Notes: a model not told the origin generated them from the letters alone. 64,000 nucleotides of DNA from an uncultured Planctomycetales bacterium (GCA_964556925.1 CAZKXY010000001.1:2790-66789); one strand, 5' to 3'; counted from the stretch's first letter, positions 15,241 through 55,950 are shown. Program-made: numbers and translations.

Positions 15241-15249
15241 CGCCGTTCT

Positions 15250-20038: not shown

Positions 20039-21108
20039 AGGCGCTCATTACGGGCGGGGCGGGGTTCATCGGATCGCATCTGACCGAGGCGCTCCTCAGG
20101 CGGGGCGATCACGTGACGGTGCTGGACGATCTCTCGACCGGCCGGTACGAGAACCTCGCGCACCTGGACGGCCGCCCGGAGCTCCAGGTCGTCATCGGGA
20201 CGGTCCTGAACGAGACCCTGGTGGACAAGTTCACCGAGCGGTGCGACGTGGTATTCCACCTGGCGGCCGCGGTCGGGGTGGAGCTGATCATCAAGAAGCC
20301 GCTGGAGTCGCTCATGACCAACATCCGCGGCAGCGAGATCATCCTCGAGATGGCCCACCGGTACCGCAAGAAGGTCCTGGTCGCCTCCACCTCCGAGATC
20401 TACGGCAAGAACACCACCGGCCCGCTGCGGGAGGACACCGACCGGGTGCTGGGCTCGGCCCTGAAGACGCGGTGGAGCTACTCGACGTCGAAAGCCGTGG
20501 ATGAAATCCTCGCGTACGTCTACTGGAAAGAGAAGAAGGTCCCGACGGTCATCGTGCGCCTCTTCAACACGGTCGGGCCCAGGCAGAGCGGCGCGTACGG
20601 GATGGTGATCCCGCGGTTTGTCAGCCAGGCGCTGGCGGGCAGGCCCCTCCAGGTGCACGGGGACGGCACGCAGACCCGGTGCTTCCTGCACGTGAACGAT
20701 GTCGTGCAGGCCCTGACGAAGCTCATCGAGCATCCCGGCGCCGTGGGGCAGGTGTTCAACCTCGGCAGCCAGGAGGAGGTGACGATCGAGGAGCTGGCGA
20801 AGCGCATCATCCGCCTCACCGGCAGCGCCTCTCGCATCGAGTACCTCCCGTATGACCAGGCGTATGAGGAAGGCTACGAGGACATGCCGCGGCGGGTGCC
20901 GGATACGAGCAAGGTCCGCGCGCTGATCGGCTTTGCGCCGAGCATGAATCTCGATGAGACCATCCGCAGCGTGGTCAGGAGCATGCGGCCTGAGAGGCCG
21001 GCCGCGCCCGCCACGGATCGCCCCACCCCGCCGGCGCGCCGGCGCCTCCGGAGAGGTGTCAGACACCTTTCAAAGCGGGAAAAGTGTCTGACACCTCTGG
21101 TGCGATGA
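20035..21108 (+). CDS. NAD-dependent epimerase/dehydratase (GalE/WcaG-like nucleotide-sugar 4-epimerase)
   Basis: ITGGAGFIGSHL and YSTSK (YxxxK). The last ~15 codons read through repeat copy A1 (GVRHLSKREKCLTP), so the true C-terminus is uncertain. Confidence 0.8.
   Translation: MKALITGGAGFIGSHLTEALLRRGDHVTVLDDLSTGRYENLAHLDGRPELQVVIGTVLNETLVDKFTERCDVVFHLAAAVGVELIIKKPLESLMTNIRGSEIILEMAHRYRKKVLVASTSEIYGKNTTGPLREDTDRVLGSALKTRWSYSTSKAVDEILAYVYWKEKKVPTVIVRLFNTVGPRQSGAYGMVIPRFVSQALAGRPLQVHGDGTQTRCFLHVNDVVQALTKLIEHPGAVGQVFNLGSQEEVTIEELAKRIIRLTGSASRIEYLPYDQAYEEGYEDMPRRVPDTSKVRALIGFAPSMNLDETIRSVVRSMRPERPAAPATDRPTPPARRRLRRGVRHLSKREKCLTPLVR
21054..21096. repeat. Family-A double-palindrome element, copy A1 (short spacer CAAAGCGGG)
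   Basis: AGGTGTCAGACACCTTT-CAAAGCGGG-AAAAGTGTCTGACACCT. Each arm, GGTGTC-N-GACACC, is itself palindromic. Confidence 0.85.
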
Positions 21109-22952
21109 GTGTCATGGCTCGGCACGTGGAGGCGTGGCTGAGCGCTCCGGTGTGGCAACAGCTCGGGATCGGCTGGCTGGCGGGGCTCACCGCCTTGCTC
21201 GTGACCCTGATGCTGACGCCGCTCGTCCGCGAGATGGCGGTGCGGTTCGGGTGGGTGGCCAGGCCGGTCGGGGACCGGTGGGGCCGGCGCGCCGTCGCGC
21301 GGCTCGGCGGGGTGGCCATGTTCGCCGGCTTTGTGACGGCGGTCCTCATCTGGGCGCCGCTTGAGCCGCGCGTGATCGGGCTCTTGGGGGGCACGGTCCT
21401 GGTGTTCCTCTTGGGTCTGCTCGATGACATCCGGCGGATGCCGGCCCATACGAAGCTCGTGGGGCAGCTGCTCATCGGCTGCGTCGTCGTGCTCAGCGGC
21501 ATCCGCGTGGAGGTGAGCGCCTGGCCCTGGCTGTCGATCCCGCTGTCGGTCTTCTGGTTCGTGCTGGTCATGAACGCCTTCAACCTGCTGGACAACATGG
21601 ACGGCCTGGCGGCCGGCGTCGGGGCCATCGCCGCCGCGTTCTGCGTCGTCCATGCGGCGCTCGCCGGCGAGCGGATCGTGGCGATGCTGGCGGTGATCCT
21701 GTGCGGCACGTGCCTGGGGTTTCTCTTGCTCAACTTCCCTCCGGCGAAGATCTACATGGGCGATTCCGGCAGCCACTTCCTGGGCCTCAGCTTGGCCGCG
21801 TTGGCGCTGCTCGGCGGTTGGCGCCATTCCACGCACCTGTTGAGCGTGCTGGCGGTGCCGTCGCTGATCCTGGCGGTGCCGATCTTCGACACGTGCTTCG
21901 TCACGGTGCAGCGGCTCGCGCACCGGCTGCACCCGTTCGTCGGCGGGCGCGACCACGTGTCGCACCGGCTGGCCATCCTCGGCCTGAGCACCCGCCAGAC
22001 GGTGATCGCCCTCTACGGCCTGAGCGCGTCCCTCGGCGTGCTCAGCGTCGTGTCCCTCTCCCTGCGGCCGCTGGCGACGGTCGTGATGTGGCTGTTTGCC
22101 CTGACGGGGTTCGTCCTGGTCGGTTCGTACCTCTCGAACGTCAAGGTGTATCGGCTGAGCCGAACGCCGGCCGAGGCGGAGGAGGAACCGGATCGGCCCG
22201 TCACCCTGATCGACACCATGCTGATGCACAAACGCCGGCTCGTGGAGATCCTGGTGGACTTCGTCCTGGTGGGCGGCGTCTACGTCGTCGCCTACCTCCT
22301 GCGGTTCGAAGGGGCGCTGACGAGGGACCTCCAGCAGCTGATCGTGCAGTCGCTGCCGGTGATCCTGGTGGTGAAGTTGACATCCTTCGCCGCCTGCGGG
22401 GTGTACCGGGGCATCTGGCGCTACCTGAGCCTGCCGGATGTGGTGACGGTCTTCAAAGCGGTGACGCTCGGCTCGGTGGGTTCGGCGCTGGCGGTCTTGT
22501 ATCTCTGGCGGTTCGGCGGCTATTCCCGCGCGGTGTTCATCATCGACTGGATGCTGACCTTTTTCGCCGTCGGCGGCTCGCGGGTTCTGGAGCGGCTGCT
22601 CGATGAATGGATCAGCGCGGCCTCGGCGCAGGGGACCCCGCTGGTGATCATCGGGGCGGGGGATACCGGCGCGCGCGTGTTGCGGGCGCTGAAAGACGAG
22701 GGCCACGCGCGCCGCGTGATCGGGTTGCTCGATGATAACGTCCGCACGCACGGCGACCGCATCCACGGCGTGCCGGTCTTGGGCGGGCGGGGCAGGCTGC
22801 CGGAGCTGATTCAGGGCGCCGGGGTGCGGGAAATCCTCATCGCGATGAGCGACCCGCCGGGGGAGCTGCTCCACTACATCCAGCGCTGCTGCGAGCCGCA
22901 TGGCGCCTCCTGGAAAATCGTGACCGCGGGGATCATGCATGCCCCCGAATAG
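21105..22952 (+). CDS. Polyprenol-phosphate hexose-/HexNAc-1-phosphate transferase (WecA/MraY GT4 family) fused to a C-terminal CoA/NAD-binding CapD/PglF-like domain
   Basis: NAFNLLDNMDGLAAG and IYMGDSGSHFLG (MraY/WecA motifs), then LVIIGAGDTGARVLRAL...VIGLLDDN. Confidence 0.75.
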   Translation: MSVMARHVEAWLSAPVWQQLGIGWLAGLTALLVTLMLTPLVREMAVRFGWVARPVGDRWGRRAVARLGGVAMFAGFVTAVLIWAPLEPRVIGLLGGTVLVFLLGLLDDIRRMPAHTKLVGQLLIGCVVVLSGIRVEVSAWPWLSIPLSVFWFVLVMNAFNLLDNMDGLAAGVGAIAAAFCVVHAALAGERIVAMLAVILCGTCLGFLLLNFPPAKIYMGDSGSHFLGLSLAALALLGGWRHSTHLLSVLAVPSLILAVPIFDTCFVTVQRLAHRLHPFVGGRDHVSHRLAILGLSTRQTVIALYGLSASLGVLSVVSLSLRPLATVVMWLFALTGFVLVGSYLSNVKVYRLSRTPAEAEEEPDRPVTLIDTMLMHKRRLVEILVDFVLVGGVYVVAYLLRFEGALTRDLQQLIVQSLPVILVVKLTSFAACGVYRGIWRYLSLPDVVTVFKAVTLGSVGSALAVLYLWRFGGYSRAVFIIDWMLTFFAVGGSRVLERLLDEWISAASAQGTPLVIIGAGDTGARVLRALKDEGHARRVIGLLDDNVRTHGDRIHGVPVLGGRGRLPELIQGAGVREILIAMSDPPGELLHYIQRCCEPHGASWKIVTAGIMHAPE

Positions 22953-24171: not shown

Positions 24172-24199
24172 CCGGCACCTGCCCCGCTGTGAGTCCCCC

Positions 24200-27425: not shown

Positions 27426-27518
27426 TCGTTGCTCGATCGTCCCTGCTTCTGGCTGCGGGGCCGGCTCGCCTGCGGTGCGCGGCATCGCTCCGGCCGCCCA
27501 GCGTGCGGCCGGTCGCTC

Positions 27519-27578
27519 AAAAGGTGTCAGACACCTTTCCCGATGCGAGACGAGCGGTCGAAAGGTGTCTGACACCTG
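27519..27578. repeat. Family-A element, copy A2 (long spacer containing GCGAGACGA)
   Basis: AAAGGTGTCAGACACCTTTCC-CGATGCGAGACGAGCGGTCG-AAAGGTGTCTGACACCTG. Lies in a 210-nt gap. Confidence 0.85.
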
Positions 27579-27636
27579 TTGCGATGCGCAGCGGCAGGAC
27601 CCGTCGGGCCAACACAGACCTGCAACAGGTGGCGGG

Positions 27637-28491: not shown

Positions 28492-28492
28492 A

Positions 28493-28537
28493 CAGGTGTC
28501 AGACACCTTTCAAGGCGGGAAAAGTGTCTGACACCTG
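28493..28537. repeat. Family-A element, copy A3 (short spacer)
   Basis: CAGGTGTCAGACACCTTTCAAGGCGGGAAAAGTGTCTGACACCTG. Confidence 0.85.
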
Positions 28538-28616
28538 TGCGGCGGACTGGCCGCGCGTCGTCCGCAAATTCGGTCAGGCCGATGGGTGCACGATCGAGCG
28601 TCTGGGCCAGGACCAG

Positions 28617-29669: not shown

Positions 29670-29678
29670 GCGGTGCGC

Positions 29679-37150: not shown

Positions 37151-37154
37151 GGCC

Positions 37155-38984: not shown

Positions 38985-39008
38985 GCGGCGGCTGCCATCG
39001 CGATTCGT

Positions 39009-40526: not shown

Positions 40527-41267
40527 ATGACCGTGGTTGACCGGCGGGCGATGGCCCGCGCATTGCAGCGGCATGTGGAAGGGCTGCGGCTCATGGGCGT
40601 GACGCATCTGCCTGCCTGCCGCGCCGATGATCAGTCGGACTGGGCGTCATGGCGCGGCGCGGGATCAGGAACACCCTCCAGGTCTGAGCGGCTGGCCCGG
40701 CTGGCCGCGGAGGTGGCGCGCTGCCGGCGCTGTCCGCTCTACCGCACGAGGACGCACGCGGTTGTCAGCGACGGCAGCCCCGAGGCCCGCCTCGTGTTTG
40801 TCGGGGAAGCCCCGGGTCGAGAGGAAGACCTCCAGGGCAAGCCGTTCGTCGGGGCCGCGGGGCAGCTCCTGACCAAGATGATCGCGGCGATGGGGATGCG
40901 GCGGCAGGACGTGTACATCTGCAACGTGTTGAAGGACCGGCCGCCGGCCAACCGCACCCCGCTGCCGGAGGAGATGGACGCGTGCCTGCCGTTTTTGGAG
41001 CAGCAGCTCGCCATCGTCCACCCGCGCGTCATCTGCACGCTCGGCGCGGTCGCCACGAAGGCGCTCCTGGGCCCCTCGGTCCCCCTCTCCGCCATCCGGG
41101 GCACGGTGCGCGACTTCCGCGGCACCCCGCTCGTGCCGACGTTCCACCCCGCGTACCTGCTGCGCAATCCCGCCGCCAAGAAGTTCGCCTGGGCCGACCT
41201 CAAGACCGTGAAGTCGCTCTTAGAAGAAAAGGTGTCAGACACTTTTCAAAGCGGGAAAAGTGTCTGA
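40527..41267 (+). CDS. Uracil-DNA glycosylase, family 4 (4Fe-4S type)
   Basis: CRRCPLY, GEAPGREED and HPAYLLR motifs. The last ~12 codons read through repeat A4. Confidence 0.8.
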   Translation: MTVVDRRAMARALQRHVEGLRLMGVTHLPACRADDQSDWASWRGAGSGTPSRSERLARLAAEVARCRRCPLYRTRTHAVVSDGSPEARLVFVGEAPGREEDLQGKPFVGAAGQLLTKMIAAMGMRRQDVYICNVLKDRPPANRTPLPEEMDACLPFLEQQLAIVHPRVICTLGAVATKALLGPSVPLSAIRGTVRDFRGTPLVPTFHPAYLLRNPAAKKFAWADLKTVKSLLEEKVSDTFQSGKSV

Positions 41268-41274
41268 CACCCTT
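41227..41274. repeat. Family-A element, copy A4 (short spacer), between udg and priA
   Basis: AAAAGGTGTCAGACACTTTTCAAAGCGGGAAAAGTGTCTGACACCCTTT. Confidence 0.85.
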
Positions 41275-41275
41275 T

Positions 41276-43381: not shown

Positions 43382-43386
43382 GCACA

Positions 43387-43493
43387 AAAGTGCCAGGCAC
43401 TTTCCCGGTTGGATTTTTGGTTTAGCTGTGTCACACCGAAGTTTTCCACAGGTTGGCGGAAATTGGAAGCGGGAAAGTGCCTGGCACTTTTTT
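43387..43493. terminator. Family-B palindromic element forming a long hairpin with T-runs on both strands: a candidate bidirectional intrinsic terminator between convergent priA and the TPR gene
   Basis: AAAAGTGCCAGGCACTTTCCCG ... CGGGAAAGTGCCTGGCACTTTTTT. The 21-22-bp arms are separated by about 60 nt. TTTTTT follows the hairpin on the + strand, and TTTTGTG follows it on the - strand. Confidence 0.55.
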
Positions 43494-44088: not shown

Positions 44089-44134
44089 GGCCGCATTATC
44101 GCCGAATCGACCGGTGGCGTCAACGGCCGCCCCA

Positions 44135-44181
44135 AAGGTGTCAGACACCTTTTCCGCTTTGAAAAGTGTCTGACACCTTTT
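44135..44181. repeat. Family-A element, copy A5 (short spacer, opposite orientation), between the TPR gene and def
   Basis: AAAGGTGTCAGACACCTTTTCCGCTTTGAAAAGTGTCTGACACCTTTT, the reverse complement of the A1/A4 spacer. Confidence 0.85.
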
Positions 44182-44201
44182 AGAATAGCAGCAGGTCCGT
44201 C

Positions 44202-44720
44202 ATGAGCGTCCAGCCGCTGTGCCAGGAGCCCCACCCCGTGTTGCGCAGTCTGGCGAAACCGGTGCAGGCATTCACGGATGAGATCAGGCGGCTGGGCGAG
44301 GATCTCATTGACACGATGTACGCCCACGACGGCATCGGGCTGGCCGCCCCGCAGATCGGGCGGGCGCTGCAGGCGATCGTCGTCAATCCCTCGCAGGTGT
44401 CCGGGAGGGAAGTCGTGCTGATCAACCCGGTGCTGGAGGCGGCCGAGGGACGCGCCGGGATTGTGGAAGGGTGTCTGAGCGTGCCCAAGGTCTGGCACCG
44501 GGTGAGCCGCGCGGCCCGCGTGCGCGTGCGCGGACACGATCCCGCAGGCCATTCGCTGACGGTCGACGCCAAGGGGTTGTTGGCCATTGTGCTCCAACAC
44601 GAGTTGGACCATCTGCAAGGGCGGCTGTTCGTCGACCGCCTCTCCTGGGTCCGTCGCTGCTGGGCGTATGCCCGGATCCGCGCGCTGGGGCGTCAGTCCG
44701 CGCTCGCCGGATGCGGGTGA
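44202..44720 (+). CDS. def: Peptide deformylase
   Basis: GIGLAAPQIG, EGCLS and HELDHL motifs. Confidence 0.9.
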   Translation: MSVQPLCQEPHPVLRSLAKPVQAFTDEIRRLGEDLIDTMYAHDGIGLAAPQIGRALQAIVVNPSQVSGREVVLINPVLEAAEGRAGIVEGCLSVPKVWHRVSRAARVRVRGHDPAGHSLTVDAKGLLAIVLQHELDHLQGRLFVDRLSWVRRCWAYARIRALGRQSALAGCG

Positions 44721-45652
44721 TGTTCTTCGGCACGTCCGCGTTCGCCGTGCCGAGCCTGGAGCGCCTGGCGGCATCCCACGCTGTCGTCCACTGCATCACC
44801 CAGCCTGATCGCCCGCAGGGGCGAGGGCTCGCCCGCGCGCCCTCGCCGGTGAAGGTGGCGGCGCAGCGGCTGCGCCTGCCGCTTGTGCAGCCGGCGCGGC
44901 TGCGGGCCGAAGACGCTGCCGGGGTGGCCGCTGACATCGGCGTAGCCGCGGCGTACGGCCAGTTCATCCCCAAGGCGCTGCTTGCCCTGCCGGCCCACGG
45001 GATGCTGGGCGTGCATCCGTCGCTGTTGCCGAAGTACCGCGGGGCCGCCCCGGTGGCCTGGGCGATCGTGAACGGCGAGGCGACCACCGGCGTGACGATC
45101 TTCCGCATGAACGAGCGGCTCGACGCCGGCGAGGTGGTGGCGCAGGAGGAGGTGGCCATCGAGCCGCACGAGGATGCGCAGCAGCTCACCGCGCGTCTGG
45201 CGCGCCTCGGCGCCGAGGCGCTGCTTGGCGCCCTGGAGCGGATCGCGCAGGGCCAGGCGACCTTCATTCCGCAGGATGAGTCGCGGGCGATCCCGGCGCC
45301 GAAGCTGACCAAGGCCCACGGCCGGATCGACTGGGCCCGTCCGGCCGAGCAGATCGTGCGGCTGGTGCGCGCAACCGTCCCCTGGCCAGGCGCCTGGACC
45401 GAGTGGCGCGGCGGCCTGCTGAAGATCTGGGCGGCCGTGGCGCGCGCGGAGCCGACGGCCGTTGCGCCGGGGACCGTGGCGCGCGCGGCCGGCGATGCGC
45501 TGGCGATCGCCGCCGGCGGGGACCTAGTGGAGCTGGTGGAGGTGCAGCCGGCCGGCCGGCGGCGCATGCGCATCCAGGAGTTCCTCGCCGGCCACAGAAT
45601 TGATGTTGGTGAGCGTTTTGGGACAGGGGACAGGAGACAGGGGGCAGGTTGA
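44711..45652 (+). CDS. fmt: Methionyl-tRNA formyltransferase
   Basis: MRVMFFGT..FA, HPSLLPKYRG, and a C-terminal domain. The canonical def-fmt pair. An alternative ATG at 44720 overlaps the def stop. Confidence 0.85.
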   Translation: MRVMFFGTSAFAVPSLERLAASHAVVHCITQPDRPQGRGLARAPSPVKVAAQRLRLPLVQPARLRAEDAAGVAADIGVAAAYGQFIPKALLALPAHGMLGVHPSLLPKYRGAAPVAWAIVNGEATTGVTIFRMNERLDAGEVVAQEEVAIEPHEDAQQLTARLARLGAEALLGALERIAQGQATFIPQDESRAIPAPKLTKAHGRIDWARPAEQIVRLVRATVPWPGAWTEWRGGLLKIWAAVARAEPTAVAPGTVARAAGDALAIAAGGDLVELVEVQPAGRRRMRIQEFLAGHRIDVGERFGTGDRRQGAG

Positions 45653-45705
45653 GATGCTCGCTGCGACCTGTCTCCTGTCTCCGGTCTCCTGTCTTAGCCG
45701 TTCCG

Positions 45706-46758
45706 ATGCCTGAGCTCCGCAAGGACCCCCTGATCGGCCGGTGGGTGATCATCGCGACGGATCGCGCCAAGCGGCCGGTGGACTTTGTCGCCTCCCATGA
45801 TGAGGCGCTCTCGCCGGACACCTGTCCCTTTTGCGCTGGCCACGAGGGCGAGACCCCCACGGAGATCTTCGCGATCCGCCCGAACGGGGGCAAGGGCAAC
45901 GGGCCGGGCTGGACGGTCCGGGTGATTCCCAGCATCAAGCCGGTCTTGCGCATTGAAGGCCAGCTCAACCGGCATGGGAAGGGGATGTACGACCTCATGG
46001 ATGGCATCGGCGCCCACGAAGTGATCATCGAGACGCCGGACCACATCCCGAACGCGGCGGATCTTCCGGTGGAGCACCTCCACGCGGCGCTCGATGCCTC
46101 GCGGATCCGGATGGTGGACCTGGAGCGGGACCCGCGGTTCCGCTACGTCCTCTGGTTCAAAAACTACGGGTCGGTGGCGGGCGCCGGACGGATCCAGCAC
46201 AGCCGCTCGCAGCTCATCGCCACCCCGGTCACCCCGCTGCGGGTCAAGGAGGAGTTGGTGGGCACGCGCCGGTACTTCGAGGACAAGGAGCGCTGCCTCG
46301 TCTGCGACCTCGCCGCCCAGGAGCGGCAGGCGCGGGTCCGCGTCGTGATCGACACGCCCCATATCCTGGCGCTGTGTCCGTTCGCCTCGCGGTTCCCCTT
46401 CGAGCTGTGGATTGTGCCGAAGCGGCACGGCTGCGATTTCGACAAGCTCTCGCCGGAGGAGCTCAGCGACCTCGCGGCGGTGTTCAAGCAGCTCCTCAGC
46501 CGGCTGAAGGCGGTCCTGAACGACCCGCCGTACAACGCGCTGCTGCACACCGCGCCGTTCCGGGGCCGCCACACCCGGGTCGGCTACTGGAAAACGATCG
46601 AGGATGACTACCACTGGCATTTCGAGCTCATCCCCCGTCTGACCCGCGTGGCCGGCTTCGAGTGGGGCAGCGGCTTCTACATCAACCCCACCCCGCCGGA
46701 AGAGGCGGCGAAGTACCTGCGCGAGGCTGTCATCGAGGAGCCCCTCGCCCATGTCTGA
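45706..46758 (+). CDS. Galactose-1-phosphate uridylyltransferase-family protein (GalT-like HIT nucleotidyltransferase), copy 1
   Basis: CPFCAGHE zinc motif and the active-site HSRSQL (HxHxQ-type). Confidence 0.75.
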   Translation: MPELRKDPLIGRWVIIATDRAKRPVDFVASHDEALSPDTCPFCAGHEGETPTEIFAIRPNGGKGNGPGWTVRVIPSIKPVLRIEGQLNRHGKGMYDLMDGIGAHEVIIETPDHIPNAADLPVEHLHAALDASRIRMVDLERDPRFRYVLWFKNYGSVAGAGRIQHSRSQLIATPVTPLRVKEELVGTRRYFEDKERCLVCDLAAQERQARVRVVIDTPHILALCPFASRFPFELWIVPKRHGCDFDKLSPEELSDLAAVFKQLLSRLKAVLNDPPYNALLHTAPFRGRHTRVGYWKTIEDDYHWHFELIPRLTRVAGFEWGSGFYINPTPPEEAAKYLREAVIEEPLAHV

Positions 46759-47752
46759 GCTGCGGCGCGATCCCATCATCGGCCGGTGGAACATCATCGA
46801 GGCCGACGACCCGGCGGGGCCGGAGGCCTTCGAGGTCGAGACGCACGCGAACAGCGGCGGCAAATGCCCGTTCTGCTTCGGCAACGAGGGCATGACCCCG
46901 CCGGAGATCTACGTCGTCCGGCCGCCGGGCGGCGCTGCGAACGGCCCGGGCTGGAGCCTGCGCGTGGTGGCGAACAAGTTCCCCGCGCTGAAGATCGAGG
47001 GCGACCTCGACCGGCAGGGGATGGGGGTGTACGACTGGTGCAACGGCGTCGGCGCCCACGAAGTGATCGTCGAGACGCCCGACCACAACCGCCAGATGGC
47101 GGACCTCAGCATCGCCGAGCTGACCGAGGTCGTGAAGGCCTTCAAGGCCCGCTCGCTAGACCTGCGCGGGGACAAGCGCCTGAAGTACACGCTCATCTTC
47201 AAGAACTTCGGGCTGTCGGCCGGGGCCTCGCTGGAGCACACGCATTCGCAGCTCATCGCGCTGCCGATCGTGCCGAAGCGGGTCCAGGAGGAGCTGCGGG
47301 GTGCGGAGCGGTATTTCGAGTTCCGCGAGCGCTGCCCGTACTGCGACATGCTCCGCCACGAGCTGCAAGAGCACGAGCGCGTCATCTGCGAAAACCGCAG
47401 CTTCGTGGCGATCTGCCCGTTCATGTCGAGCTTCCCCTTCGAGCTCTGGGTGCTGCCGAAGGAGCACGGGGCCGACTTCGCGCAGCTCGCGCCGGAGCCG
47501 GCGGGGGATTTCGCGCGCATCCTCAAGGAGACGCTGCTGCGGCTGCGGACCGCCCTCCGGGATCCGTCCTACAACTTCATCATCCACTCCGCGCCCATTG
47601 AGCGGCAGGCGCGGGAGGAGTACCACTGGCATCTGGAGCTGATCCCCAAGCTCACCAAGATCGCGGGCTTTGAGTGGGGCACCGGCTTCTACATCAACCC
47701 GACGTCCCCCGAGCAGGCCGCCACGCTGCTCCGGGACATCCAGATCGGCTAA
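46751..47752 (+). CDS. Galactose-1-phosphate uridylyltransferase-family protein (GalT-like), copy 2 (tandem paralog)
   Basis: CPFCFGNE and HTHSQL. Overlaps the copy 1 stop. Confidence 0.75.
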   Translation: MSELRRDPIIGRWNIIEADDPAGPEAFEVETHANSGGKCPFCFGNEGMTPPEIYVVRPPGGAANGPGWSLRVVANKFPALKIEGDLDRQGMGVYDWCNGVGAHEVIVETPDHNRQMADLSIAELTEVVKAFKARSLDLRGDKRLKYTLIFKNFGLSAGASLEHTHSQLIALPIVPKRVQEELRGAERYFEFRERCPYCDMLRHELQEHERVICENRSFVAICPFMSSFPFELWVLPKEHGADFAQLAPEPAGDFARILKETLLRLRTALRDPSYNFIIHSAPIERQAREEYHWHLELIPKLTKIAGFEWGTGFYINPTSPEQAATLLRDIQIG

Positions 47753-47767
47753 CCGATGACACCGTTC

Positions 47768-47842
47768 CGGTGTCAGGCACTTCGCTCCGCCTACAATGGT
47801 GTCAGACACTTTTCAAAGCGGGAAAAGTGTCTGACACCTTTT
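47768..47842. repeat. Family-A element, copy A6 (short spacer), preceded by an A/B hybrid half-site, between galT-like copy 2 and gap
   Basis: GGTGTCAGGCACTTCGC ... GGTGTCAGACACTTTTCAAAGCGGGAAAAGTGTCTGACACCTTTT. Confidence 0.8.
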
Positions 47843-47856
47843 AACGGGAGGATGTG

Positions 47857-48909
47857 ATGGCGATTCGGGTCGGCATTAACGGGTTCGGACGGATCGGGCG
47901 CAACGTCTTCCGCGCCGGCGTCAACCGGGCGGGGATCGAGTTCGTGGCGGTGAACGACCTGCCGACCCCGACGGAGACGCTGGCCCACCTGCTCAAGTAC
48001 GACTCGATCCTGGGCACGTTTCAGGCCGACGTCCGCGCCAGCCAGGACGCCGTGGTCGTCAACGGCAAGCCCCTGAAGGTCTTCACGAGCAAGACCCCGG
48101 CCGAGATCCCCTGGAACGACCTGGGGGTCGAGCTCGTGGTGGAGTCCAGCGGCGTCTTCACCGACAAGGAGCGGGCATCCGGCCACCTCGCCAGGGGGGT
48201 CAAGAAGGTCGTCATCACCGCCCCGGCGAAGAACGAGGACCTCACCATCGTGCTGGGGGTCAACGAGCAGGCCTACGACCCGGCCAAGCACCACGTGCTC
48301 TCCAACGCCTCCTGCACGACCAACTGCGTCGTGCCGATGGCCAAGCTGATCCATGAGCGGTTCACGATCGTGCGCGGGTTCATGACCACGATCCACTCGT
48401 ACACCAACGACCAGCGCCTGCTGGACCTGACGCACAAGGACCTGCGCCGGGCGCGGGCCGCGGCGCTGTCGATGATCCCGAGCACGACCGGGGCGGCCAA
48501 GACGGTCGGGGTGGTGTTCCCGGAGCTCAAGGGGCGCATCGACGGGCTCTCGATCCGGGTGCCGACGCCGAACGTCTCGATCGTCGATCTCTCCTGCCAG
48601 GTGGAGCAGCCGACGACGGCCGAGGCGGTGAACCAGCTCTTCAAGGCCGCCGCCGAGGGGCCCATGAAGGGGATCCTGCAGTACTGCGCCGACCCGCTCG
48701 TCTCGCGGGACTTCAACGGCAACGCGCACTCGTGCATCTTCGACGCCACGATGACGGCGGTGATCGACAGGCAGCTCGTCAAGGCCTTCGGCTGGTACGA
48801 CAACGAGTGGGGCTACTCGAACCGCGTCGTGGACCTCATCGAGTACGTCGCGAAGCGCGGGCTCGGCGCCACCGCAGGCAGCGCGGCCAAGGCTGCAGTT
48901 GGGGCCTAG
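47857..48909 (+). CDS. gap: Glyceraldehyde-3-phosphate dehydrogenase
   Basis: INGFGRIGR and SCTTNC motifs. A GGGAGG Shine-Dalgarno lies 8 nt upstream. Confidence 0.92.
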   Translation: MAIRVGINGFGRIGRNVFRAGVNRAGIEFVAVNDLPTPTETLAHLLKYDSILGTFQADVRASQDAVVVNGKPLKVFTSKTPAEIPWNDLGVELVVESSGVFTDKERASGHLARGVKKVVITAPAKNEDLTIVLGVNEQAYDPAKHHVLSNASCTTNCVVPMAKLIHERFTIVRGFMTTIHSYTNDQRLLDLTHKDLRRARAAALSMIPSTTGAAKTVGVVFPELKGRIDGLSIRVPTPNVSIVDLSCQVEQPTTAEAVNQLFKAAAEGPMKGILQYCADPLVSRDFNGNAHSCIFDATMTAVIDRQLVKAFGWYDNEWGYSNRVVDLIEYVAKRGLGATAGSAAKAAVGA

Positions 48910-48943
48910 CGAGACAGAGAAAGAACGCAGGGTTCTCACCTGG

Positions 48944-50200
<1,257 letters not shown>

Positions 50201-50215
50201 GCGATTGGGTTGCTG

Positions 50216-50989
50216 ATGCGCAAACCGCTCATTGCCGGCAACTGGAAATGCCACACGACGCTCCGGGAGGCCGCGGCGCTGGTCGAGCAGGTGAAGCGCT
50301 CCTGCCAGCTGCCGACGGTGGAGGCGGCGGTCTTCCCCCCGTTTCCCGCGCTGTCGTCGGCGGGCCAGTGGCTGGACGGGTCGACGATCCGCTTGGGCGC
50401 GCAGGACGTGTTCTGGGAGCCGCAGGGCGCGTTTACCGGCGAGGTCTCCCCGCGGATGCTCGTGGATGTCGGCTGCCGGTTCGTGATCATCGGCCACTCG
50501 GAGCGCCGGACGCTCTTCGGGGAGACCGATGAGACGGTGCGCCGCAAGCTCCTCGCCGTCCTGAGGGAGCCGCTGACGCCCATCGTCTGCATCGGCGAAA
50601 CGCTGGCCGAGCGCGATGCCAATCGGACGTTCGACGTCATCACGCGTCAACTGACCGACGGCCTCCAGGGGCTGGCCGGGGAGCAGGCTGGGCAGGTCAT
50701 CGTGGCGTACGAGCCACTCTGGGCCATCGGCACCGGCCGCAACGCGACCCCGGAGCAGGCGCAGGAGGCGCATGCGTTCGTCCGTCAGCGGCTGGCGAAC
50801 GCGTGGGGCAAGGAGACCGCCCAAGCCATTCGGATTCTCTACGGCGGCAGCGTCAACGGGACGAACGCCGAGTCGTTGCTCGCCCAGCCGGATGTGGATG
50901 GGGCGTTGGTGGGCGGCGCCAGCCTGAAGGCCGAGTCGTTCAGCGCGATCGTGAAAGCGGCTGCAGAAGCCAAAACCGTGAGGCGATAA
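50216..50989 (+). CDS. tpiA: Triosephosphate isomerase
   Basis: AGNWK, IGHSERR and AYEPLWAIGTG motifs. Confidence 0.92.
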   Translation: MRKPLIAGNWKCHTTLREAAALVEQVKRSCQLPTVEAAVFPPFPALSSAGQWLDGSTIRLGAQDVFWEPQGAFTGEVSPRMLVDVGCRFVIIGHSERRTLFGETDETVRRKLLAVLREPLTPIVCIGETLAERDANRTFDVITRQLTDGLQGLAGEQAGQVIVAYEPLWAIGTGRNATPEQAQEAHAFVRQRLANAWGKETAQAIRILYGGSVNGTNAESLLAQPDVDGALVGGASLKAESFSAIVKAAAEAKTVRR

Positions 50990-50992
50990 CCG

Positions 50993-51376
50993 ATGTTTGT
51001 CTTCCTCCTCGTCATTCATGTGCTGGTGGCCCTGTTCCTGATCGGCGTCATCCTCATCCAAGGGGGTCGGGGCGGGCTCGGCGAGGCCTTGGGCGGGGCG
51101 GCGGCGCAGTCGCTCTTCGGCGGCGGCGCCAACCTCGTCATGGCGCGAGTCACCACGGCGGCCGCGGCGCTGTTCATGGTCACCTGCCTCTCGCTGGCGG
51201 CGATTTCCACGGCCCGCGGCCGGTCGGTGATCGAGCAGCTGCCGGCGTCGGTCGACCAATTGCCGTTGACGTTGCCGGGGGAGCCCGTGCAGCCGACCGC
51301 TCCTCCGGCGGTGCCGACGAGCGTCGGGGAAGCCGAAACCGCACCTTCCCAACCCGCTCAGCCCACTCCCCCCTAG
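50993..51376 (+). CDS. secG: Preprotein translocase subunit SecG
   Basis: Small two-TM protein, LLVIHVLVALFLIGVILIQGGRGG, in the typical tpiA-secG arrangement. Confidence 0.85.
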   Translation: MFVFLLVIHVLVALFLIGVILIQGGRGGLGEALGGAAAQSLFGGGANLVMARVTTAAAALFMVTCLSLAAISTARGRSVIEQLPASVDQLPLTLPGEPVQPTAPPAVPTSVGEAETAPSQPAQPTPP

Positions 51377-51390
51377 GCCTCCCAAAGGGC

Positions 51391-51452
51391 AAAAGGTGTC
51401 AGACACCTTCTTCGCTGCGAGACGACCGCTCAACAGGTGTCTGACACCTTTT
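51391..51452. repeat. Family-A element, copy A7 (long spacer), between secG and the peptide-binding protein
   Basis: AAAAGGTGTCAGACACCTTCTTCGCTGCGAGACGACCGCTCAACAGGTGTCTGACACCTTTT. Confidence 0.85.
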
Positions 51453-53042
51453 GTTGTTGTGGCGGCGCTGGCGCTCCTTGCCCCCGCGCTTCGCGCCACG
51501 CCCCCTGCCGAGCCGGTGACCGGCGATGCGCTGGTCGACGGCGCTATCGGCGACGCGAGCCGGCTGCTGCCCCTCCTGGCGACCGACAGCGCCTCCGGCA
51601 CCATCGTCTCGCTGCTCTTCAACGGCCTCGTGAAATACAACGAGCGGCTCGAGATCGTCGGCGATCTGGCCGAGTCGTGGGCCGTCAGCGACGGGGGCCT
51701 GACGATCACCTTCGTCCTGCGCCCGAACGCCCGCTGGCATGACGGGGCTCCGGTGACGGCGGAGGATGTCCGCTTCACCTACGAGAAGCTCATCGATCCT
51801 GCCGTGCGCACGCCGTATGCCAGCAGCTATGAGCGCATCCAGTCGGTCGAGGTGCTGGATGCGCACACCGTCCGCGTCCGGTATCGGGAGCCGTTCGCGC
51901 CAGCGCTCGAAAGCTGGATGATGGGGATCATGCCCAAGCACCTCCTGCAGGGCGAGGACCTCAACACGACCCCGTGGCTCCGCCGCCCGGTCGGCCACGG
52001 CCCCTATCGGTTCGTCCGGTGGAAGACCGGCGAGCTGATCGAGCTTTCCGCCAACCCGGACTACTTCGAGCACCGCCCCTTCCTCGACCGCTACCTCTAC
52101 CGGGTCATCCCGGACGCCGCGACGATGTTCTTGGAGCTGTTGACCGGCGGCATCGATCAGACCGGCTTGACCCCTCTGCAGTACGCCCGGCAGACGGGCG
52201 GCGAGCGGTTTGCGCGCGCCTACCGGAAATTTCGCTACCCCTCCTTCGGCTTCACGTACCTCGGCTACAACCTCCAGGATCCGCGGTTCGCGGACCTCCG
52301 CGTGCGCCGCGCGATCGACCGCGCGATCGACAAGCAGGCGATCCTCGACAACGTGCTGTACGGGCTAGGGGCTGTGGCCACCGGCCCGTACCCCGAAGAG
52401 TCCTGGGCGCACAACCCCGAGGTGCGGCCCGCGCCCTGCGACCTGCAGGCCGCCGCGGCGCTCTTGGCGCAGGCCGGCTGGAGCGACCATGACGGCGACG
52501 GCTGGCTCGACCGGGAGGGGGCGCCGTTCCGCTTCACCGTGATCACGAACCAGGGCAACGACGTGCGCCGCCAGGTGGCGGAGATCGTCCAACAGCAGCT
52601 GGCGAAGCTGGGCATCGACGTGACGATCCGGATCATCGAGTGGGCCACGTTCGTGCACGAGTTCATCGACAAGCGCCGGTTCGAGGCGGTGCTGCTCGGC
52701 TGGGGCCTGTCGCGCGATCCGGACCTGTACGATCTGTTCCACTCCTCCAAGACGAAGGAAGGGGAGTACAACTTCGTCGGCTATGCCAACCCTGAGGTGG
52801 ACCGGCTGCTGGAGGAGGGCCGTCGCACGTTCGATCAGGCCGCGCGGCAGCGGATCTACCGGGAGGTCCACCGCCGGCTGGCCGAGGACCAGCCCTACAC
52901 GTTTCTCTTCGTCGCGGATGCGCTGCCGGTGGTGGCCTCGCGGGTGCGCAACGTCAGGGCCAGCCCCGCCGGCATCGGCTACAACGTCATCGAGTGGTAC
53001 GTCCCGCTGCCCGAGCAGCGCTACAAGCGGCTGGCCCAATAA
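51396..53042 (+). CDS. ABC transporter substrate-binding protein, family 5 (Opp/Dpp/Nik-type peptide/nickel binding)
   Basis: SBP_bac_5 architecture. The start is uncertain. A GTG at 51396 lies inside repeat A7 and would give a canonical signal peptide whose Arg-rich n-region is repeat-encoded. An alternative GTG is at 51459. Confidence 0.75.
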   Translation: MSDTFFAARRPLNRCLTPFVVVAALALLAPALRATPPAEPVTGDALVDGAIGDASRLLPLLATDSASGTIVSLLFNGLVKYNERLEIVGDLAESWAVSDGGLTITFVLRPNARWHDGAPVTAEDVRFTYEKLIDPAVRTPYASSYERIQSVEVLDAHTVRVRYREPFAPALESWMMGIMPKHLLQGEDLNTTPWLRRPVGHGPYRFVRWKTGELIELSANPDYFEHRPFLDRYLYRVIPDAATMFLELLTGGIDQTGLTPLQYARQTGGERFARAYRKFRYPSFGFTYLGYNLQDPRFADLRVRRAIDRAIDKQAILDNVLYGLGAVATGPYPEESWAHNPEVRPAPCDLQAAAALLAQAGWSDHDGDGWLDREGAPFRFTVITNQGNDVRRQVAEIVQQQLAKLGIDVTIRIIEWATFVHEFIDKRRFEAVLLGWGLSRDPDLYDLFHSSKTKEGEYNFVGYANPEVDRLLEEGRRTFDQAARQRIYREVHRRLAEDQPYTFLFVADALPVVASRVRNVRASPAGIGYNVIEWYVPLPEQRYKRLAQ

Positions 53043-53230
53043 TGGTACCGGGTCTTGCTCTGTCGAACAGCCACGGTTCCAGAGCAAAACGTGTCAGACA
53101 CGTTTCCCGCTGCGAGACGACCGGTCGAAAGGTGTCTGACACCTGTTGCGGTCGTCCCAGCGGCTGTTCGACAGAGCAACCGGGTCTCATTTTTTCCTCC
53201 GAGGACGATAGAAAAATGAGACCCGGTACC
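53043..53230. repeat. Family-A element, copy A8 (long spacer, core about 53087-53150), nested in a larger palindromic intergenic structure that includes an AT-rich 13-bp stem hairpin
   Basis: Core: GTGTCAGACACGTTTCCCGCTGCGAGACGACCGGTCGAAAGGTGTCTGACACCTGTTGCGGTCGTCCCAGCGGCTGTTCGACAGAGC. Outer pair: GGTACCGGGTCTTGCTCTGTCGAACAG / CTGTTCGACAGAGCAACCGGGTCTC ... GAGACCCGGTACC. Inner hairpin: GGGTCTCATTTTT...AAAAATGAGACCC. Confidence 0.8.
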
Positions 53231-53241
53231 AATTTTCCCTT

Positions 53242-54234
53242 TTGCGTGCGATGAGTGGCTATCTTGTGCGTCGCCTCATCGGGCTGGTGCCGGTGCTGCT
53301 GTGGATCACGGTGATTTCGTTCGGGATCATCCACCTCGCGCCGGGCAAGCCCACCGACGCCGCGATGTCGTTCAACCCCAAGGTCTCGCTCGAGGCCCGG
53401 CAGCGCATGGAGCTGCTCTACGGCCTGGACCAGCCGGTGCACGTCCAGTACGTCGCCTGGCTGCGGCGGCTGGCGCGCCTCGACTTTGGGCGGTCGTTCC
53501 TCGATGATCGGCCGGTGACGGCCAAGATCGTCGAGCGGCTGCCGATCACCCTGATGATCAACCTCCTGTCGCTGGCGCTGATCTTGGCGGTTACGATCCC
53601 CCTGGGCGTCGTGGCGGCCGCGCGCCCCCACGGACTGTTCGATCGGCTGACAACGGTCTTCGTCTTCATCGGCTACTCCACGCCCTCGTTCTGGCTGGCG
53701 CTGTTGTGCATGGCCTTCTTCGGGGTGCATCTGCGGTGGCTGCCGGTCTCCGGGATCCACTCGTTGGACCATGAGTCGTTCCCCCTCCTGCGGCAATGGC
53801 TGGATCTCGCGTGGCACCTGGCGCTGCCGGTCGGGATCGCGGCGTTCGTCAGCCTCGCGGGCATGTCCCGCTACGCGCGCGCGAGCATGGTCGACATCCT
53901 GCGCCAGGACTACATCCGCTGCGCCCGCGCCAAGGGGCTTCCGGCCTCGCGGGTGCTGTTCCACCACGGCCTGCGCAACGCGCTGTTGCCCGTCATCACG
54001 ATCCTGGGGCTGTCGCTGCCGGATCTCATCGGCGGCAGCGTGATCGCCGAGACGATCTTCTCGATCCCCGGGATGGGGCGGCTGTTCTACGAGGCGGTGA
54101 TGGCGCGGGACTACCCGGTGGTCATGGCGCTGGTGACGATCGGCGCGGTGCTCACGATGCTCGGCAACCTCCTAGCCGATCTCGCCTACGCGTATGCCGA
54201 CCCGCGCATCCGCGTCGGCCCATCCACCAGCTGA
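53242..54234 (+). CDS. ABC transporter permease (OppB/DppB-like)
   Basis: Six TM helices and the EAA-like loop RCARAKGL. Confidence 0.85.
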   Translation: MRAMSGYLVRRLIGLVPVLLWITVISFGIIHLAPGKPTDAAMSFNPKVSLEARQRMELLYGLDQPVHVQYVAWLRRLARLDFGRSFLDDRPVTAKIVERLPITLMINLLSLALILAVTIPLGVVAAARPHGLFDRLTTVFVFIGYSTPSFWLALLCMAFFGVHLRWLPVSGIHSLDHESFPLLRQWLDLAWHLALPVGIAAFVSLAGMSRYARASMVDILRQDYIRCARAKGLPASRVLFHHGLRNALLPVITILGLSLPDLIGGSVIAETIFSIPGMGRLFYEAVMARDYPVVMALVTIGAVLTMLGNLLADLAYAYADPRIRVGPSTS

Positions 54235-55028
54235 TGGCGAAGAATCGGTTGACGGTGTGTGGCGGGGTGGTGCTGCTGCTATTGGCGCTGGTCGCCGGGG
54301 CGGCGCCGTGGCTGTCGCCCCACGATCCCCTGCAGGTGAACCTGCCGGATGCGCTCCTGCCGCCCTCGGCCGCCTATCCGCTGGGGACCGACCAGCTCGG
54401 CCGGGACGTGCTCAGCCGGCTCCTCTACGGCACCCGCATCTCGCTGCTGATCGGGTTCATCGCGGTCGGAATCGCCGTCGTCATCGGCACCGGCATCGGC
54501 GCGATCGCCGGCTTCTACGGCGGCTGGGTGGATGCGATCCTCATGCGGTTCGTCGATACGATGCTGTCCATCCCGACGATCTTCCTGCTGCTGTCCATCA
54601 TCGCGGTGCTGGGTCCCAGCATCCAGGTCGTCATGGCCGTCATCGGCCTGACGAGCTGGATGGGGGTGGCCCGGCTGGTGCGGGCGGAGCTCCTCAGCCT
54701 CAAGGAGCGGGAGTTCGTCTTGGCGGCGCGCGTGCTGGGCGCGTCGCCGGTGAGGCTCATCACGAGGCACCTGCTGCCCAACGCGATGGCGCCGGTGGTG
54801 GTCAGCGCAACGCTGGGCGTCGGGGGCGCGATCCTGACCGAATCGGTCCTGAGCTACCTGGGGCTCGGGGTGCAGCCGCCGACGCCGAGCTGGGGCAACA
54901 TCCTGAACGAGGGCCGGATCGCGCTGGGGGTGGCGTGGTGGCTGACGGTGAGCCCCGGCGTGTGCATCCTCATGACGGTGCTGGCGTTCAACCTCCTCGG
55001 CGAAGGGCTCCGCGAACGCTACAAATGA
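54234..55028 (+). CDS. ABC transporter permease (OppC/DppC-like)
   Basis: TM topology and the YGTRISLLIG block. TGATG overlap with the upstream gene. Confidence 0.85.
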   Translation: MAKNRLTVCGGVVLLLLALVAGAAPWLSPHDPLQVNLPDALLPPSAAYPLGTDQLGRDVLSRLLYGTRISLLIGFIAVGIAVVIGTGIGAIAGFYGGWVDAILMRFVDTMLSIPTIFLLLSIIAVLGPSIQVVMAVIGLTSWMGVARLVRAELLSLKEREFVLAARVLGASPVRLITRHLLPNAMAPVVVSATLGVGGAILTESVLSYLGLGVQPPTPSWGNILNEGRIALGVAWWLTVSPGVCILMTVLAFNLLGEGLRERYK

Positions 55029-55032
55029 GCGA

Positions 55033-55050
55033 AAAAGTGCCAGGCACTTC
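55033..55050. repeat. Family-B half-site between the OppC-like and OppD-like genes
   Basis: AAAAGTGCCAGGCACTTCGCC, a single arm with no partner within 100 nt. Confidence 0.5.
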
Positions 55051-55060
55051 GCCGCTTGGA

Positions 55061-55852
55061 ATGCCACTGCTAACTGTGGAAAACCTCTCCGTCACCTACC
55101 GGCAGGACGGCGCGCCGGTTCGCGCGGTGGACGGGGTGAGCTTTGCCATCGAGCCGGGCGAGGTGCTTGCGCTGGTGGGCGAATCCGGCTCGGGGAAGAG
55201 CAGCGTCGCGCTGGCGCTGGCTCGGCTGCTGCCCCCGATGGCGTCGGTGTCCGGGCGGGTGATGCTGAGCGAGGCCGATCTTCTCGACGCGCCCGAAGCG
55301 ACCCTGCGGGCCATCCGCGGCGGCACGATCGCGTATGTCTTCCAGGATCCGGCTGCGTCGTTGAACCCGGTGCTCACCATCGGGGAGCAGCTGGTCGAAA
55401 TGCTGACCCGGCACACGCCGTTGCGCGGGCGGGACGCGGAGCGGGCGGCCGTGGAGTGGCTGGGCCGCATGGGGATCGCCTCGGCCGCGGAGCGGCTGCA
55501 CGCGTATCCGCACGAGTTTTCCGGCGGCATGCAGCAGCGCGTGTGCCTGGCGATGGCGCTGTGCGCGAGCCCCTCGCTGCTGGTCGCCGATGAGCCGACG
55601 ACGGCGCTCGACGTGACCGTGCAGGTTGCGATCCTGCGGCTGCTCCGGGAGCTGCAGCGGCGCCTAGGGCTGGCGGTGCTGCTGATCTCGCATGACCTGC
55701 TCGTCGTGGAGCGGCTGGCGCACCGGATCGGCATCATGGCCGGCGGCCGGCTGGTCGAGCTGGGGCCGGCCGAGCAGGTGCTGCGCCGGCCCGCGCACGA
55801 CCAGACGAAGCTGCTGCTGCGCGCCCGCGCGGCGATGACGCTGCGCCGATGA
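55061..55852 (+). CDS. ABC transporter ATP-binding protein (OppD/DppD-like)
   Basis: GESGSGKS, FSGGMQQR and LLVADEPTTALD motifs. An upstream in-frame ATG at 55025 would read through half-repeat B3. Confidence 0.85.
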   Translation: MPLLTVENLSVTYRQDGAPVRAVDGVSFAIEPGEVLALVGESGSGKSSVALALARLLPPMASVSGRVMLSEADLLDAPEATLRAIRGGTIAYVFQDPAASLNPVLTIGEQLVEMLTRHTPLRGRDAERAAVEWLGRMGIASAAERLHAYPHEFSGGMQQRVCLAMALCASPSLLVADEPTTALDVTVQVAILRLLRELQRRLGLAVLLISHDLLVVERLAHRIGIMAGGRLVELGPAEQVLRRPAHDQTKLLLRARAAMTLRR

Positions 55853-55858
55853 CCTGGC

Positions 55859-55950
55859 AAACGGTGTCAGACACCTTTCCCGAGGCGAGACGACAGGTCG
55901 AAAGGTGTCTGACACCGTTTGCGGTCGTCCCGACGGGTTTTCGACACAGC
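55859..55950. repeat. Family-A element, copy A9 (long spacer plus a 3' extension shared with A8), between the two ABC ATPase genes
   Basis: AAACGGTGTCAGACACCTTTCCCGAGGCGAGACGACAGGTCGAAAGGTGTCTGACACCGTTTGCGGTCGTCCCGACGGGTTTTCGACACAGC. Confidence 0.85.

Follow-up and report, generated by a model that had tools for sequence, protein, structure and literature searches.

Inverted palindrome doublets at the gene junctions of an uncultured bacterium as a probable REPIN family with a candidate RAYT

What kind of repeat returns at one gene junction after another along 64,000 nt of DNA, and what copies it there, is the question raised by the stretch GCA_964556925.1 CAZKXY010000001.1:2790-66789, deposited from an uncultured Planctomycetales bacterium and called here the window, by which its whole length is meant. 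The repeat, family A, is a short double palindrome for which an initial annotation had suggested a family like REPs (repetitive extragenic palindromes) or MITEs (miniature inverted-repeat transposable elements), possibly served by a RAYT (REP-associated tyrosine transposase), or, as an equally good reading, tandem operators. REPs, REPINs, BIMEs (bacterial interspersed mosaic elements) and RAYTs have been well described (PMC3116915, PMC2817692, PMC3479197). The answer reached here is that family A probably consists of REPINs, doublets of inverted REP units, which are non-autonomous and which a RAYT is proposed to copy, the candidate being encoded on contig L198 of the same population. Family A does not represent a new kind of element; it can be classed with the TIRYT/subclass 2.1 system, as a REPIN-like, high-copy variant from a new lineage, and it is unusual mainly for a 13-base core that recurs in many bacterial phyla.

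Scans of the window for GGTGTCNGACACC, exact or with up to two mismatches, were compared with shuffled sequence, a chance-level genome-wide frequency of this 13-mer having been named beforehand as the result that would count against the family. Exact matches number 10 in the window versus 0.00 across 100 shuffles, and those with up to two mismatches number 22 versus 3.8 +/- 1.6. The matches pair into nine elements, found at all nine positions at which copies had been proposed, each with two GGTGTC-W-GACACC arms, the A-centred arm first and the T-centred arm second:

A1, 21055..21095, + strand: short-type copy, arm pair 21055/21083 (21055-21067 and 21083-21095), spacer TTTCAAAGCGGGAAA, fold -31.1 kcal/mol; an epimerase-like open reading frame (ORF), 20035-21108, reads through it.
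A2, 27517..27582, + strand: long-type copy, arm pair 27523/27564 (27523-27535 and 27564-27576), 28-nt spacer with GCGAGACGA, outer TCAAAA/TGTTGC, fold -41.4 kcal/mol.
A3, 28495..28535, + strand: short-type copy, arm pair 28495/28523, spacer TTTCAAGGCGGGAAA, 3 nt past the stop of a glycosyltransferase-like ORF ending at 28491.
A4, 41227..41275, + strand: short-type copy, arm pair 41231/41259; arm 2 has at its centre the TGA (41265-41267) that terminates the uracil-DNA glycosylase gene, 8 nt ahead of the priA start at 41276 (gene table of L108, offset 37856).
A5, 44134..44181, - strand: short-type copy, reversed, arm pair 44137/44165, spacer TTTTCCGCTTTGAAA, between a TPR gene (- strand) and def (+ strand).
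A6, 47798..47842, + strand: short-type copy, arm pair 47798/47826, between galT and gap.
A7, 51389..51454, + strand: long-type copy, arm pair 51395/51436, between secG and a solute-binding-protein gene; this junction is 13 nt in the relative L112.
A8, 53055..53179, + strand: composite long-type copy, arm pair 53090/53131, inner doublet 53090-53143, 3' tail CGGTCGTCCC complementary to the spacer, outer inverted repeat TTGCTCTGTCGAACAGCC.
A9, 55857..55952, + strand: long-type copy, arm pair 55863/55904, doublet 55863-55916 followed by a 3' tail in which the right-hand outer repeat is present in diverged form.

The division into short-spacer and long-spacer subtypes was recovered by a repeat finder: in five copies the 13-mers are separated by a 15-nt linker, TTTCAAAGCGGGAAA, and in four by a 28-nt linker with the conserved GCGAGACGA inside, the arm centres lying 28 and 41 bp apart; what the earlier description had lacked is that A5 is reversed, its spacer reading TTTTCCGCTTTGAAA. 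The basic unit measures about 19 nt, AAAG-GTGT-CWG-ACAC-CTTT, with the consensus flanks AAAAG/GTGTC...GACAC/CTTTT, and the GC content of the elements (43-55%) is indeed below that of the window (~70%). The proposed folding of the two inverted arms into one hairpin was borne out for all nine copies, each of which forms a single long hairpin with a dG of -28 to -55 kcal/mol and z of -3.2 to -8.2 relative to shuffles. As single-stranded DNA, the doublet consensus folds at -24.7 kcal/mol (z = -10.3), and one arm by itself does so at -6.5 kcal/mol, with a stem of 8 bp and a loop of 3 nt. The common 3' tail of A8 and A9 was also confirmed, with 86% identity across 96 nt, although the nesting of A8 within the 18-bp TTGCTCTGTCGAACAGCC inverted repeat (53055-53072 and 53162-53179) had been overlooked. 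Full-length long-type copies extend to about 140 nt with outer inverted repeats ending in GTGTCAGACAG, a full-length 140-nt relative being present on L115, and the mosaic structure of such copies resembles that of BIMEs.

The window shares its sequence with several metagenomes, being 99.995-100% identical to JGI contigs and 99.8% identical to an ENA contig. Since overlapping contigs of Ga0114945 (which holds L198), Ga0137796 and Ga0209399 are 99.7-100% identical and a Ga0209399 contig is 100% identical to the window, the three samples contain one strain-level population. Its nearest named GAPDH sequences are at most 86% identical and bear the label Candidatus Omnitrophica/Omnitrophota. Metagenomes scanned with a pattern specific to the family gave at least 115 loci in about 0.92 Mb, or about 0.99 Mb with the window, and the counts of copies, arms, spacers and placement that follow refer to the matches listed and the window. 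At least 233 elements are present in this ~0.99 Mb, 183 of them two-armed, and 157 distinct two-armed copies can be oriented. As to the genome-wide pattern search that had been proposed as a check, the contigs of this population hold distinct copies well in excess of a hundred, and the density within the window is about 140 copies per Mb. The A-then-T order of arm centres holds in 173 of the 183 doublets, 135 copies have 17 nt and 34 have 30 nt between their 11-mer cores, and both orientations of the spacer are common.

Placement of the copies is closely tied to the 3' ends of genes. The first arm follows the upstream stop codon at a median distance of 4 nt (interquartile range -4 to 15, n = 155), most copies lying no more than 15 nt past that stop, and 20 copies provide the stop themselves, as the central TGA of arm 2. 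Most copies lie between co-directional genes and 14 between convergent genes, whereas 5 of about 130 classified lie between divergent genes; copies are often found directly upstream of TTGACA-type promoters. The claim that all copies sit at gene boundaries and disrupt no gene holds for nearly all of them, the departures being A4, which supplies the stop of the uracil-DNA glycosylase gene, and A1, through which the ORF 20035-21108 reads.

A gene that could copy such elements was found by screening for ORFs between two nearby elements in contigs of the population. L198, a 5.1-kb contig of Ga0114945, encodes a 213-aa protein with the motifs GGIYHLTVRGNN, MPNHAHL and YVHLNPV. It scores 51 bits against Pfam Y1_Tnp, the only Pfam domain found in it, and 94.9 bits against NCBIfam NF047646 (REP-associated tyrosine transposase; cut-off 80), and in an alignment with E. 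coli TnpA-REP (PDB 4ER8; E = 3.6e-7) that spans the catalytic core, its HUH and Tyr motifs are in register. Of the two elements beside the gene, one is found some 150 nt upstream and the other overlaps the stop codon, their spacers being mutually inverted. This layout of a gene between repeats is the REPtron arrangement described for RAYTs (PMC6006769, PMC3733652), and the gene is a candidate for the RAYT that the initial annotation had suggested looking for elsewhere in the genome. The window itself contains no Y1 gene.

Homologues of the L198 protein, fetched together with their flanking DNA and 33-63% identical to it, are accompanied by the same or a related palindrome:

L229: homologue of 63% identity, flanked on both sides by GTGTCAGACAC...GTGTCTGACAC (GTGTCWGACAC).
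L230, an Omnitrophica metagenome-assembled genome (MAG): homologue of 59% identity, AAAAGTACCGGGTACTT-CTCAAAGCAGAAA-AAGTACCGCGTACTTTTT upstream (GTACCSGGTAC); its 3' end abuts an FtsA-like gene, with no downstream copy seen.
L236: homologue of 54% identity, flanked by GGTATCAGATACC...GGTATCTGATACC (GTATCWGATAC).
L231: homologue of 50% identity, flanked on both sides by GTGTCAGACAC...GTGTCTGACAC (GTGTCWGACAC).
L235: homologue of 49% identity, flanked by AAAAGTGCCAGGCACTTT doublets (GTGCCWGGCAC), the same variant as at 43389-43488 of the window.
L232: homologue of 49% identity with a Bac_DnaA_C tail, flanked by GGGTCAGACC units.
L099, a Ferruginibacter MAG (Bacteroidota, 35% GC): RAYT-like ORF of 33% identity, between arrays of six and four GTGTCWGACAC arms.

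Because the same or a co-varied core flanks homologues in other lineages, protein and palindrome travel together. The core changes only at paired positions, from GTGTC/GACAC to GTATC/GATAC, GTGCC/GGCAC or GTACC/GGTAC, so that each arm stays palindromic, and such changes fit recognition of the hairpin that each arm would form with its 8-bp stem and 3-nt loop. One of these variants is present in the window as a tenth doublet at 43385-43491, AAAAGTGCCAGGCACTTT ... AAAGTGCCTGGCACTTTT, with arms at 43389-43401 and 43476-43488, about 74 nt between them and the core GTGCC-W-GGCAC, in which T>C and A>G relative to family A leave the arms palindromic. Since this variant core also flanks the RAYT homologue of L235, the organism may run a second REPIN-RAYT pair.

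The sites occupied by family A are specific to the lineage. The family A motif is missing altogether from L111, L112 and L113, three syntenic relatives with a GAPDH 86-87% identical to that of the window. The junctions of L112 measure 0-40 nt where the window carries elements, while L111 and L113 have at several of the same gene boundaries quite different hairpin repeats, which are inverted arrays of tandem 7-8-mers. With the motif absent and these junctions either short or filled by other repeats, family A is a lineage-specific occupant of gene junctions, and in this group gene junctions attract hairpin repeats. The intergenic 7-8-mers of L111 and L113 include CATTGAGC, CTATGGAC, GTCAGAN and CACGGAG, several of the boundaries concerned holding family A in the window, and the window has tandem 7-8-mers of its own arranged as inverted arrays (long hairpins) at gene boundaries, with CTGTCTCC at 45660-45705. 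Between L226 and L162, a lineage pair of about 70% identity, family A occupies different junctions, and between L163 and L135, of 90% identity, a site is shared. The scan of viral contigs for the doublet gave 0 matches, so nothing points to a phage origin. No match was obtained in the window with Rfam at gathering thresholds, and a literature search for the raw motif returned nothing relevant.

The closest comparison for this set of features is offered by the REP/REPIN-RAYT systems of Proteobacteria, namely the REP/BIME elements of E. coli with TnpA-REP (PDB 4ER8) and the REPINs of Pseudomonas fluorescens (PMC3116915, PMC3479197, PMC5581495). Like those REPINs, family A comprises high-copy short extragenic palindromes arranged as inverted doublets that fold into a long hairpin, situated after coding regions and between co-directional or convergent genes, with a Y1/HUH gene flanked by the same repeats and with mosaics including other palindromes, as in BIMEs. 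It differs in that the unit is a perfect palindrome with a 3-nt loop rather than a 12-20-bp imperfect stem, in that its RAYT resembles subclass 2.1/Group 1 and not Groups 2 and 3, and in that the host is an uncultured lineage labelled Omnitrophota instead of a proteobacterium. The part of the initial annotation that pointed to a REP-like family with a RAYT has stood, with more than a hundred copies, a RAYT between copies and lineage-specific sites, and the part that pointed to MITEs has not.

RAYTs are HUH/Y1 nucleases and ligases of single-stranded DNA, from which a course of events may be proposed for family A. Each unit in single-stranded form would fold into an 8-bp stem with a 3-nt loop, and two inverted units with their 15-nt or 28-nt linker would form one hairpin of 20-24 bp. 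By analogy with known HUH/Y1 enzymes, the RAYT of L198 would bind the arm hairpin on single-stranded DNA, cut it and rejoin it, copying doublets to new sites. Selection would then remove copies from all but the least harmful places, which in a tightly packed genome are the few bases separating a stop codon from the promoter or start that follows. Inserted copies would be transcribed within the 3' end of the upstream gene, where the succession of A-run, hairpin and T-run would probably act as a 3'-end barrier or weak bidirectional terminator.

Several observations weigh against the REPIN reading or parts of it. The weak point that remains is the RAYT gene, which lies outside the window and is on record on the single 5.1-kb contig L198, whose probable link to the window's genome comes from sample-level strain identity and the shared repeat rather than from assembly. 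No excision or insertion between strains was seen, the close relatives L108-L110 being 99.8-100% identical to the window and hence without insertion polymorphism. The canonical 5' GT[AG]G tag of REPs is absent, as no GTAG or GTGG is found beside the family A stem. In the published survey, subclass 2.1 was found without REP-like sequences nearby (Quentin et al. 2018, PMC6006769), and for Group 1 RAYTs only low-frequency flanking 16-mers were described (Bertels et al., PMC5581495). The orientation bias is weak, the reference strand (spacer CAAAGCGGG / GCGAGACGA) being the coding strand of the neighbouring genes in 49 of 75 copies, short and long pooled (p = 0.01), and a terminator scan of window positions 40000-58000 (GC-rich stem, then at least 5 T in 8) flagged only arm 2 of A7. 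On account of these last two results, a role of family A as terminator or mRNA stabiliser is no more than plausible.

That family A originated as intrinsic terminators or mRNA-stabilising hairpins evolved by the host, with a similarity due to selection or gene conversion and not to transposition, is unlikely. Much of its anatomy would suit such an origin, as A-run, stable hairpin and T-run stand directly past stops as in bidirectional intrinsic terminators, at gene 3' ends and often immediately ahead of TTGACA-type promoters. The largest composite lies between the solute-binding-protein and permease genes, where L111 and L113 carry other hairpins and where in L112 the two genes overlap by 4 nt. 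However, it is one genome-wide dispersed sequence, near-identical at more than 100 unrelated junctions in its loop and in both orientations, absent from syntenic relatives, with lineage-specific sites and with a RAYT gene lying between two copies. It further differs from intrinsic terminators in its 20-24-bp stem, its GC content of 43-55% and its short T-run, usually of 3-4 T, the 3' tail of listed copies being as a rule CTTTT or CTGTT, and the scan flagged a single arm. The terminator reading serves better to describe a role acquired secondarily by exaptation than to account for how the elements arose.

Slightly less probable again is that the arms are operators for a dimeric protein binding double-stranded DNA, such as a global regulator, a nucleoid protein or the helix-turn-helix tail of a transposase-like protein, with cooperative binding to the tandem pair. 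The arms are perfect palindromes of 13 bp centred on one base, as is typical of sites bound by dimers, and their palindromy is kept when the core changes, a feature equally explained by an 8-bp/3-nt-loop hairpin per arm. Proteins of subclass 2.1 usually have a C-terminal helix-turn-helix (PMC6006769), and the homologues of the L198 protein at 48-49% identity carry Pfam Bac_DnaA_C (PF08299), but in the L198 protein Pfam finds Y1_Tnp alone. Centres 28 and 41 bp apart do not correspond to whole turns of the helix, and the copies run into the hundreds. With copies at a median of 4 nt past stops and so few between divergent genes, the operator reading is unsupported, and its ranking as equally likely does not hold.

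As for the margins of the element, family A ends fade within about 5 nt of the 13-mers among the 100 oriented short-type copies listed, and beside these copies no direct repeats, and hence no target-site duplication, are visible; complementarity of the outer flanks is slightly above the shuffled control (2.7 bp versus 2.0 bp), the flanks being inverted and not direct. Least probable is a MITE derived from a DDE insertion sequence, with the palindromes as terminal inverted repeats and the RAYT neighbourhood a coincidence, since even with the ~140-nt long-type copies and the nesting of A8 in its 18-bp inverted repeat on its side, such a reading has to face the missing target-site duplication, the weakly related, inverted flanks, the lack of any recurrent DDE transposase in about 1.9 Mb of flanking DNA, and a RAYT association whose recurrence in several independent lineages makes it no coincidence. 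MITEs such as the Correia elements of Neisseria and the RPEs of Rickettsia are nevertheless alike as small non-autonomous repeats at gene boundaries, which sometimes supply stops or promoter boxes and occasionally lie in-frame inside genes; they differ by DDE-recognised terminal inverted repeats and target-site duplications, neither of which is seen in family A.

With family A taken as REPINs, its place among RAYT systems can be narrowed. The L198 RAYT most resembles TnpA-Y1 subclass 2.1, which corresponds to Group 1 of Bertels and to the 'TIRYT' of Di Nocera, as judged from its NHAH and YVHLNP motifs and from its relatives with Bac_DnaA_C. The published motifs of this subclass are NH[VYF]H and Y[IV]HLNP / YIELNP (PMC6006769, Table 1), so that L198 has NHAH for the former and YVHLNP for Y[IV]HLNP. 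TIRYT genes are flanked by inverted repeats with GGGG[AT][CG]A[CG], or GGGGWSAS (Di Nocera et al. 2013, PMC3733652), and the flanking repeats of family A contain GGTGTCAG, which agrees at 7 of these 8 positions; the units of L232 read GGGTCAGACC. Some of the published terminal inverted repeats (TIRs) are self-complementary or 'double palindromic', occurring as moderately abundant dimers (PMC3733652). Two differences from TIRYTs are that family A is a high-copy dispersed doublet whereas the published TIR families are 'moderately abundant', and that the L198 protein is without a Pfam-detected helix-turn-helix tail. The same population has a second, different Y1-transposase-like gene (L208 602-1297; motifs NHVHLVV and YVERNPV), which is flanked by AGGGACAGG and CCTGTCCCC, the latter fitting the published GGGGWSAS and the former nearly so; on one side the sequence GGGGACAG fits the TIRYT motif, and AGGGACAG on the other nearly does.

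The recurrence of the core beyond this population was followed in a scan of one genome per GTDB species (596 Gb) for 22 specified bases of the doublet, for which less than one random match of the exact pattern is expected by our own estimate. Among the matches listed, to which the scan results given here refer, the pattern occurs at no fewer than 107 loci, i.e. at least 107, in at least 59 assemblies, from Achromobacter, Bordetella petrii, Thermoleophilia, Gaiellales, Acidimicrobiia, Planctomycetota and Acidobacteriota to Armatimonadota, Omnitrophota, Aminicenantes, Treponema, Firmicutes and Bacteroidota. An artefact of the exact 22-base search was considered and rejected, since 46-49 of the 59 assemblies have the same bases at the neighbouring positions left unspecified, G before and C after each arm; what is shared is thus genuinely the 13-mer. 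Across the phyla, the spacers and the outer flanks vary with the lineage. All-against-all clustering of ORFs in the 107 listed loci brought out beside the motif only widely recurring gene families, and a RAYT was later found by tblastn and a profile hidden Markov model in one of them, that of the Ferruginibacter MAG. Head-to-tail arrays of complete doublets with the 13-mer are found in a Thermoleophilia MAG and in Achromobacter (L002 7836-7998; L055, L068 and L072); their periods are 56, 82 to 89, and roughly 135 to 195 nt, and they resemble clusters of the BIME-2 type. The 'Bor' repeats of Bordetella (PMC1590033) may or may not equal the family A motif.

We tentatively consider it possible that GGTGTC-W-GACACC is a recognition hairpin common across phyla to a clade of subclass 2.1/Group 1 RAYTs, which would maintain REPINs while the core changes by paired substitutions. 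In published surveys such proteins were scored as IS-like or as having no REPs. If so, the core may have been conserved from Bacteroidota (35% GC) through the Omnitrophota-like lineage to Achromobacter/Bordetella (67% GC).

Effects on neighbouring genes can be read at several copies. Inside the reversed A5, the window (44159-44186) has TTGAAA 16 nt upstream of TAGAAT before def, a promoter-like arrangement, while the relatives L112 and L113 have TTGCAA-17-TAGAAT before the same gene. From this comparison A5 seems to have replaced the -35 box of def, and it may have been co-opted as the donor of that box. The solute-binding-protein gene is called publicly from a GTG in arm 1 of A7 (window 51396, L108 13540), and in L109 (11233) from a position 63 nt further downstream; the start inside A7 is probably an annotation artefact caused by the element. 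Downstream of this gene, GGTACCGGGTCT and its reverse complement (53044-53055 / 53219-53230) enclose the whole A8 composite, and a further hairpin, GGGTCTCATTTTTT...AAAAATGAGACCC, adjoins A8 (53186-53230). With these and A8, at least three palindromic units make up a mosaic in the space separating the genes for the solute-binding protein and the permease.

Other palindromes in the window were kept apart from family A. A palindromic repeat, CCGGTGCCAGGCACTTC...GAAGTGCCTGGCACCGG, lies in-frame within priA (41276-43381) at 41598-41690 and encodes VPGT...VPGT; the variable linker that holds it is about 21-25 residues shorter in L112, and the repeat has the look of a REP-like element inserted within the coding sequence of a gene for replication restart. 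A separate hairpin repeat, in which GGGCTCAG-like octamers are followed by their inverse, occurs at 15177-15242 and 50138-50203 in copies that are 82% identical, one of them at the end of pgk. Upstream of A6, GGTGTCAGGCACT (47769-47781) was considered as a third family A arm and rejected, being a fragment of the family CCGGTGTCAGGCACTTCGC...GAAGAGCCAGACACCGG, which is present in several contigs of the population (L164, L173, L184, L197 and L223).

Locally, family A explains a number of annotation oddities, namely stop codons supplied by the element, a start called inside it and a seemingly donated -35 box, and its core would be helpful as a marker when intergenic repeats of MAGs are annotated. 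No bacterial mobile DNA that is inherited vertically and persists for long has been studied better than REPIN-RAYT systems, and to our knowledge almost all that is understood of them was learned from the proteobacterial Groups 2 and 3. Should the pairing proposed here prove right, Group 1/subclass 2.1, which is the largest RAYT group and the one with the widest distribution, also runs high-copy REPINs, and does so in a candidate phylum. A core shared across phyla, if true, would run against the rule that REPs are species-specific, and a small palindromic core varying by compensatory pairs would be a compact, testable code for hairpin recognition by a Y1 nuclease.

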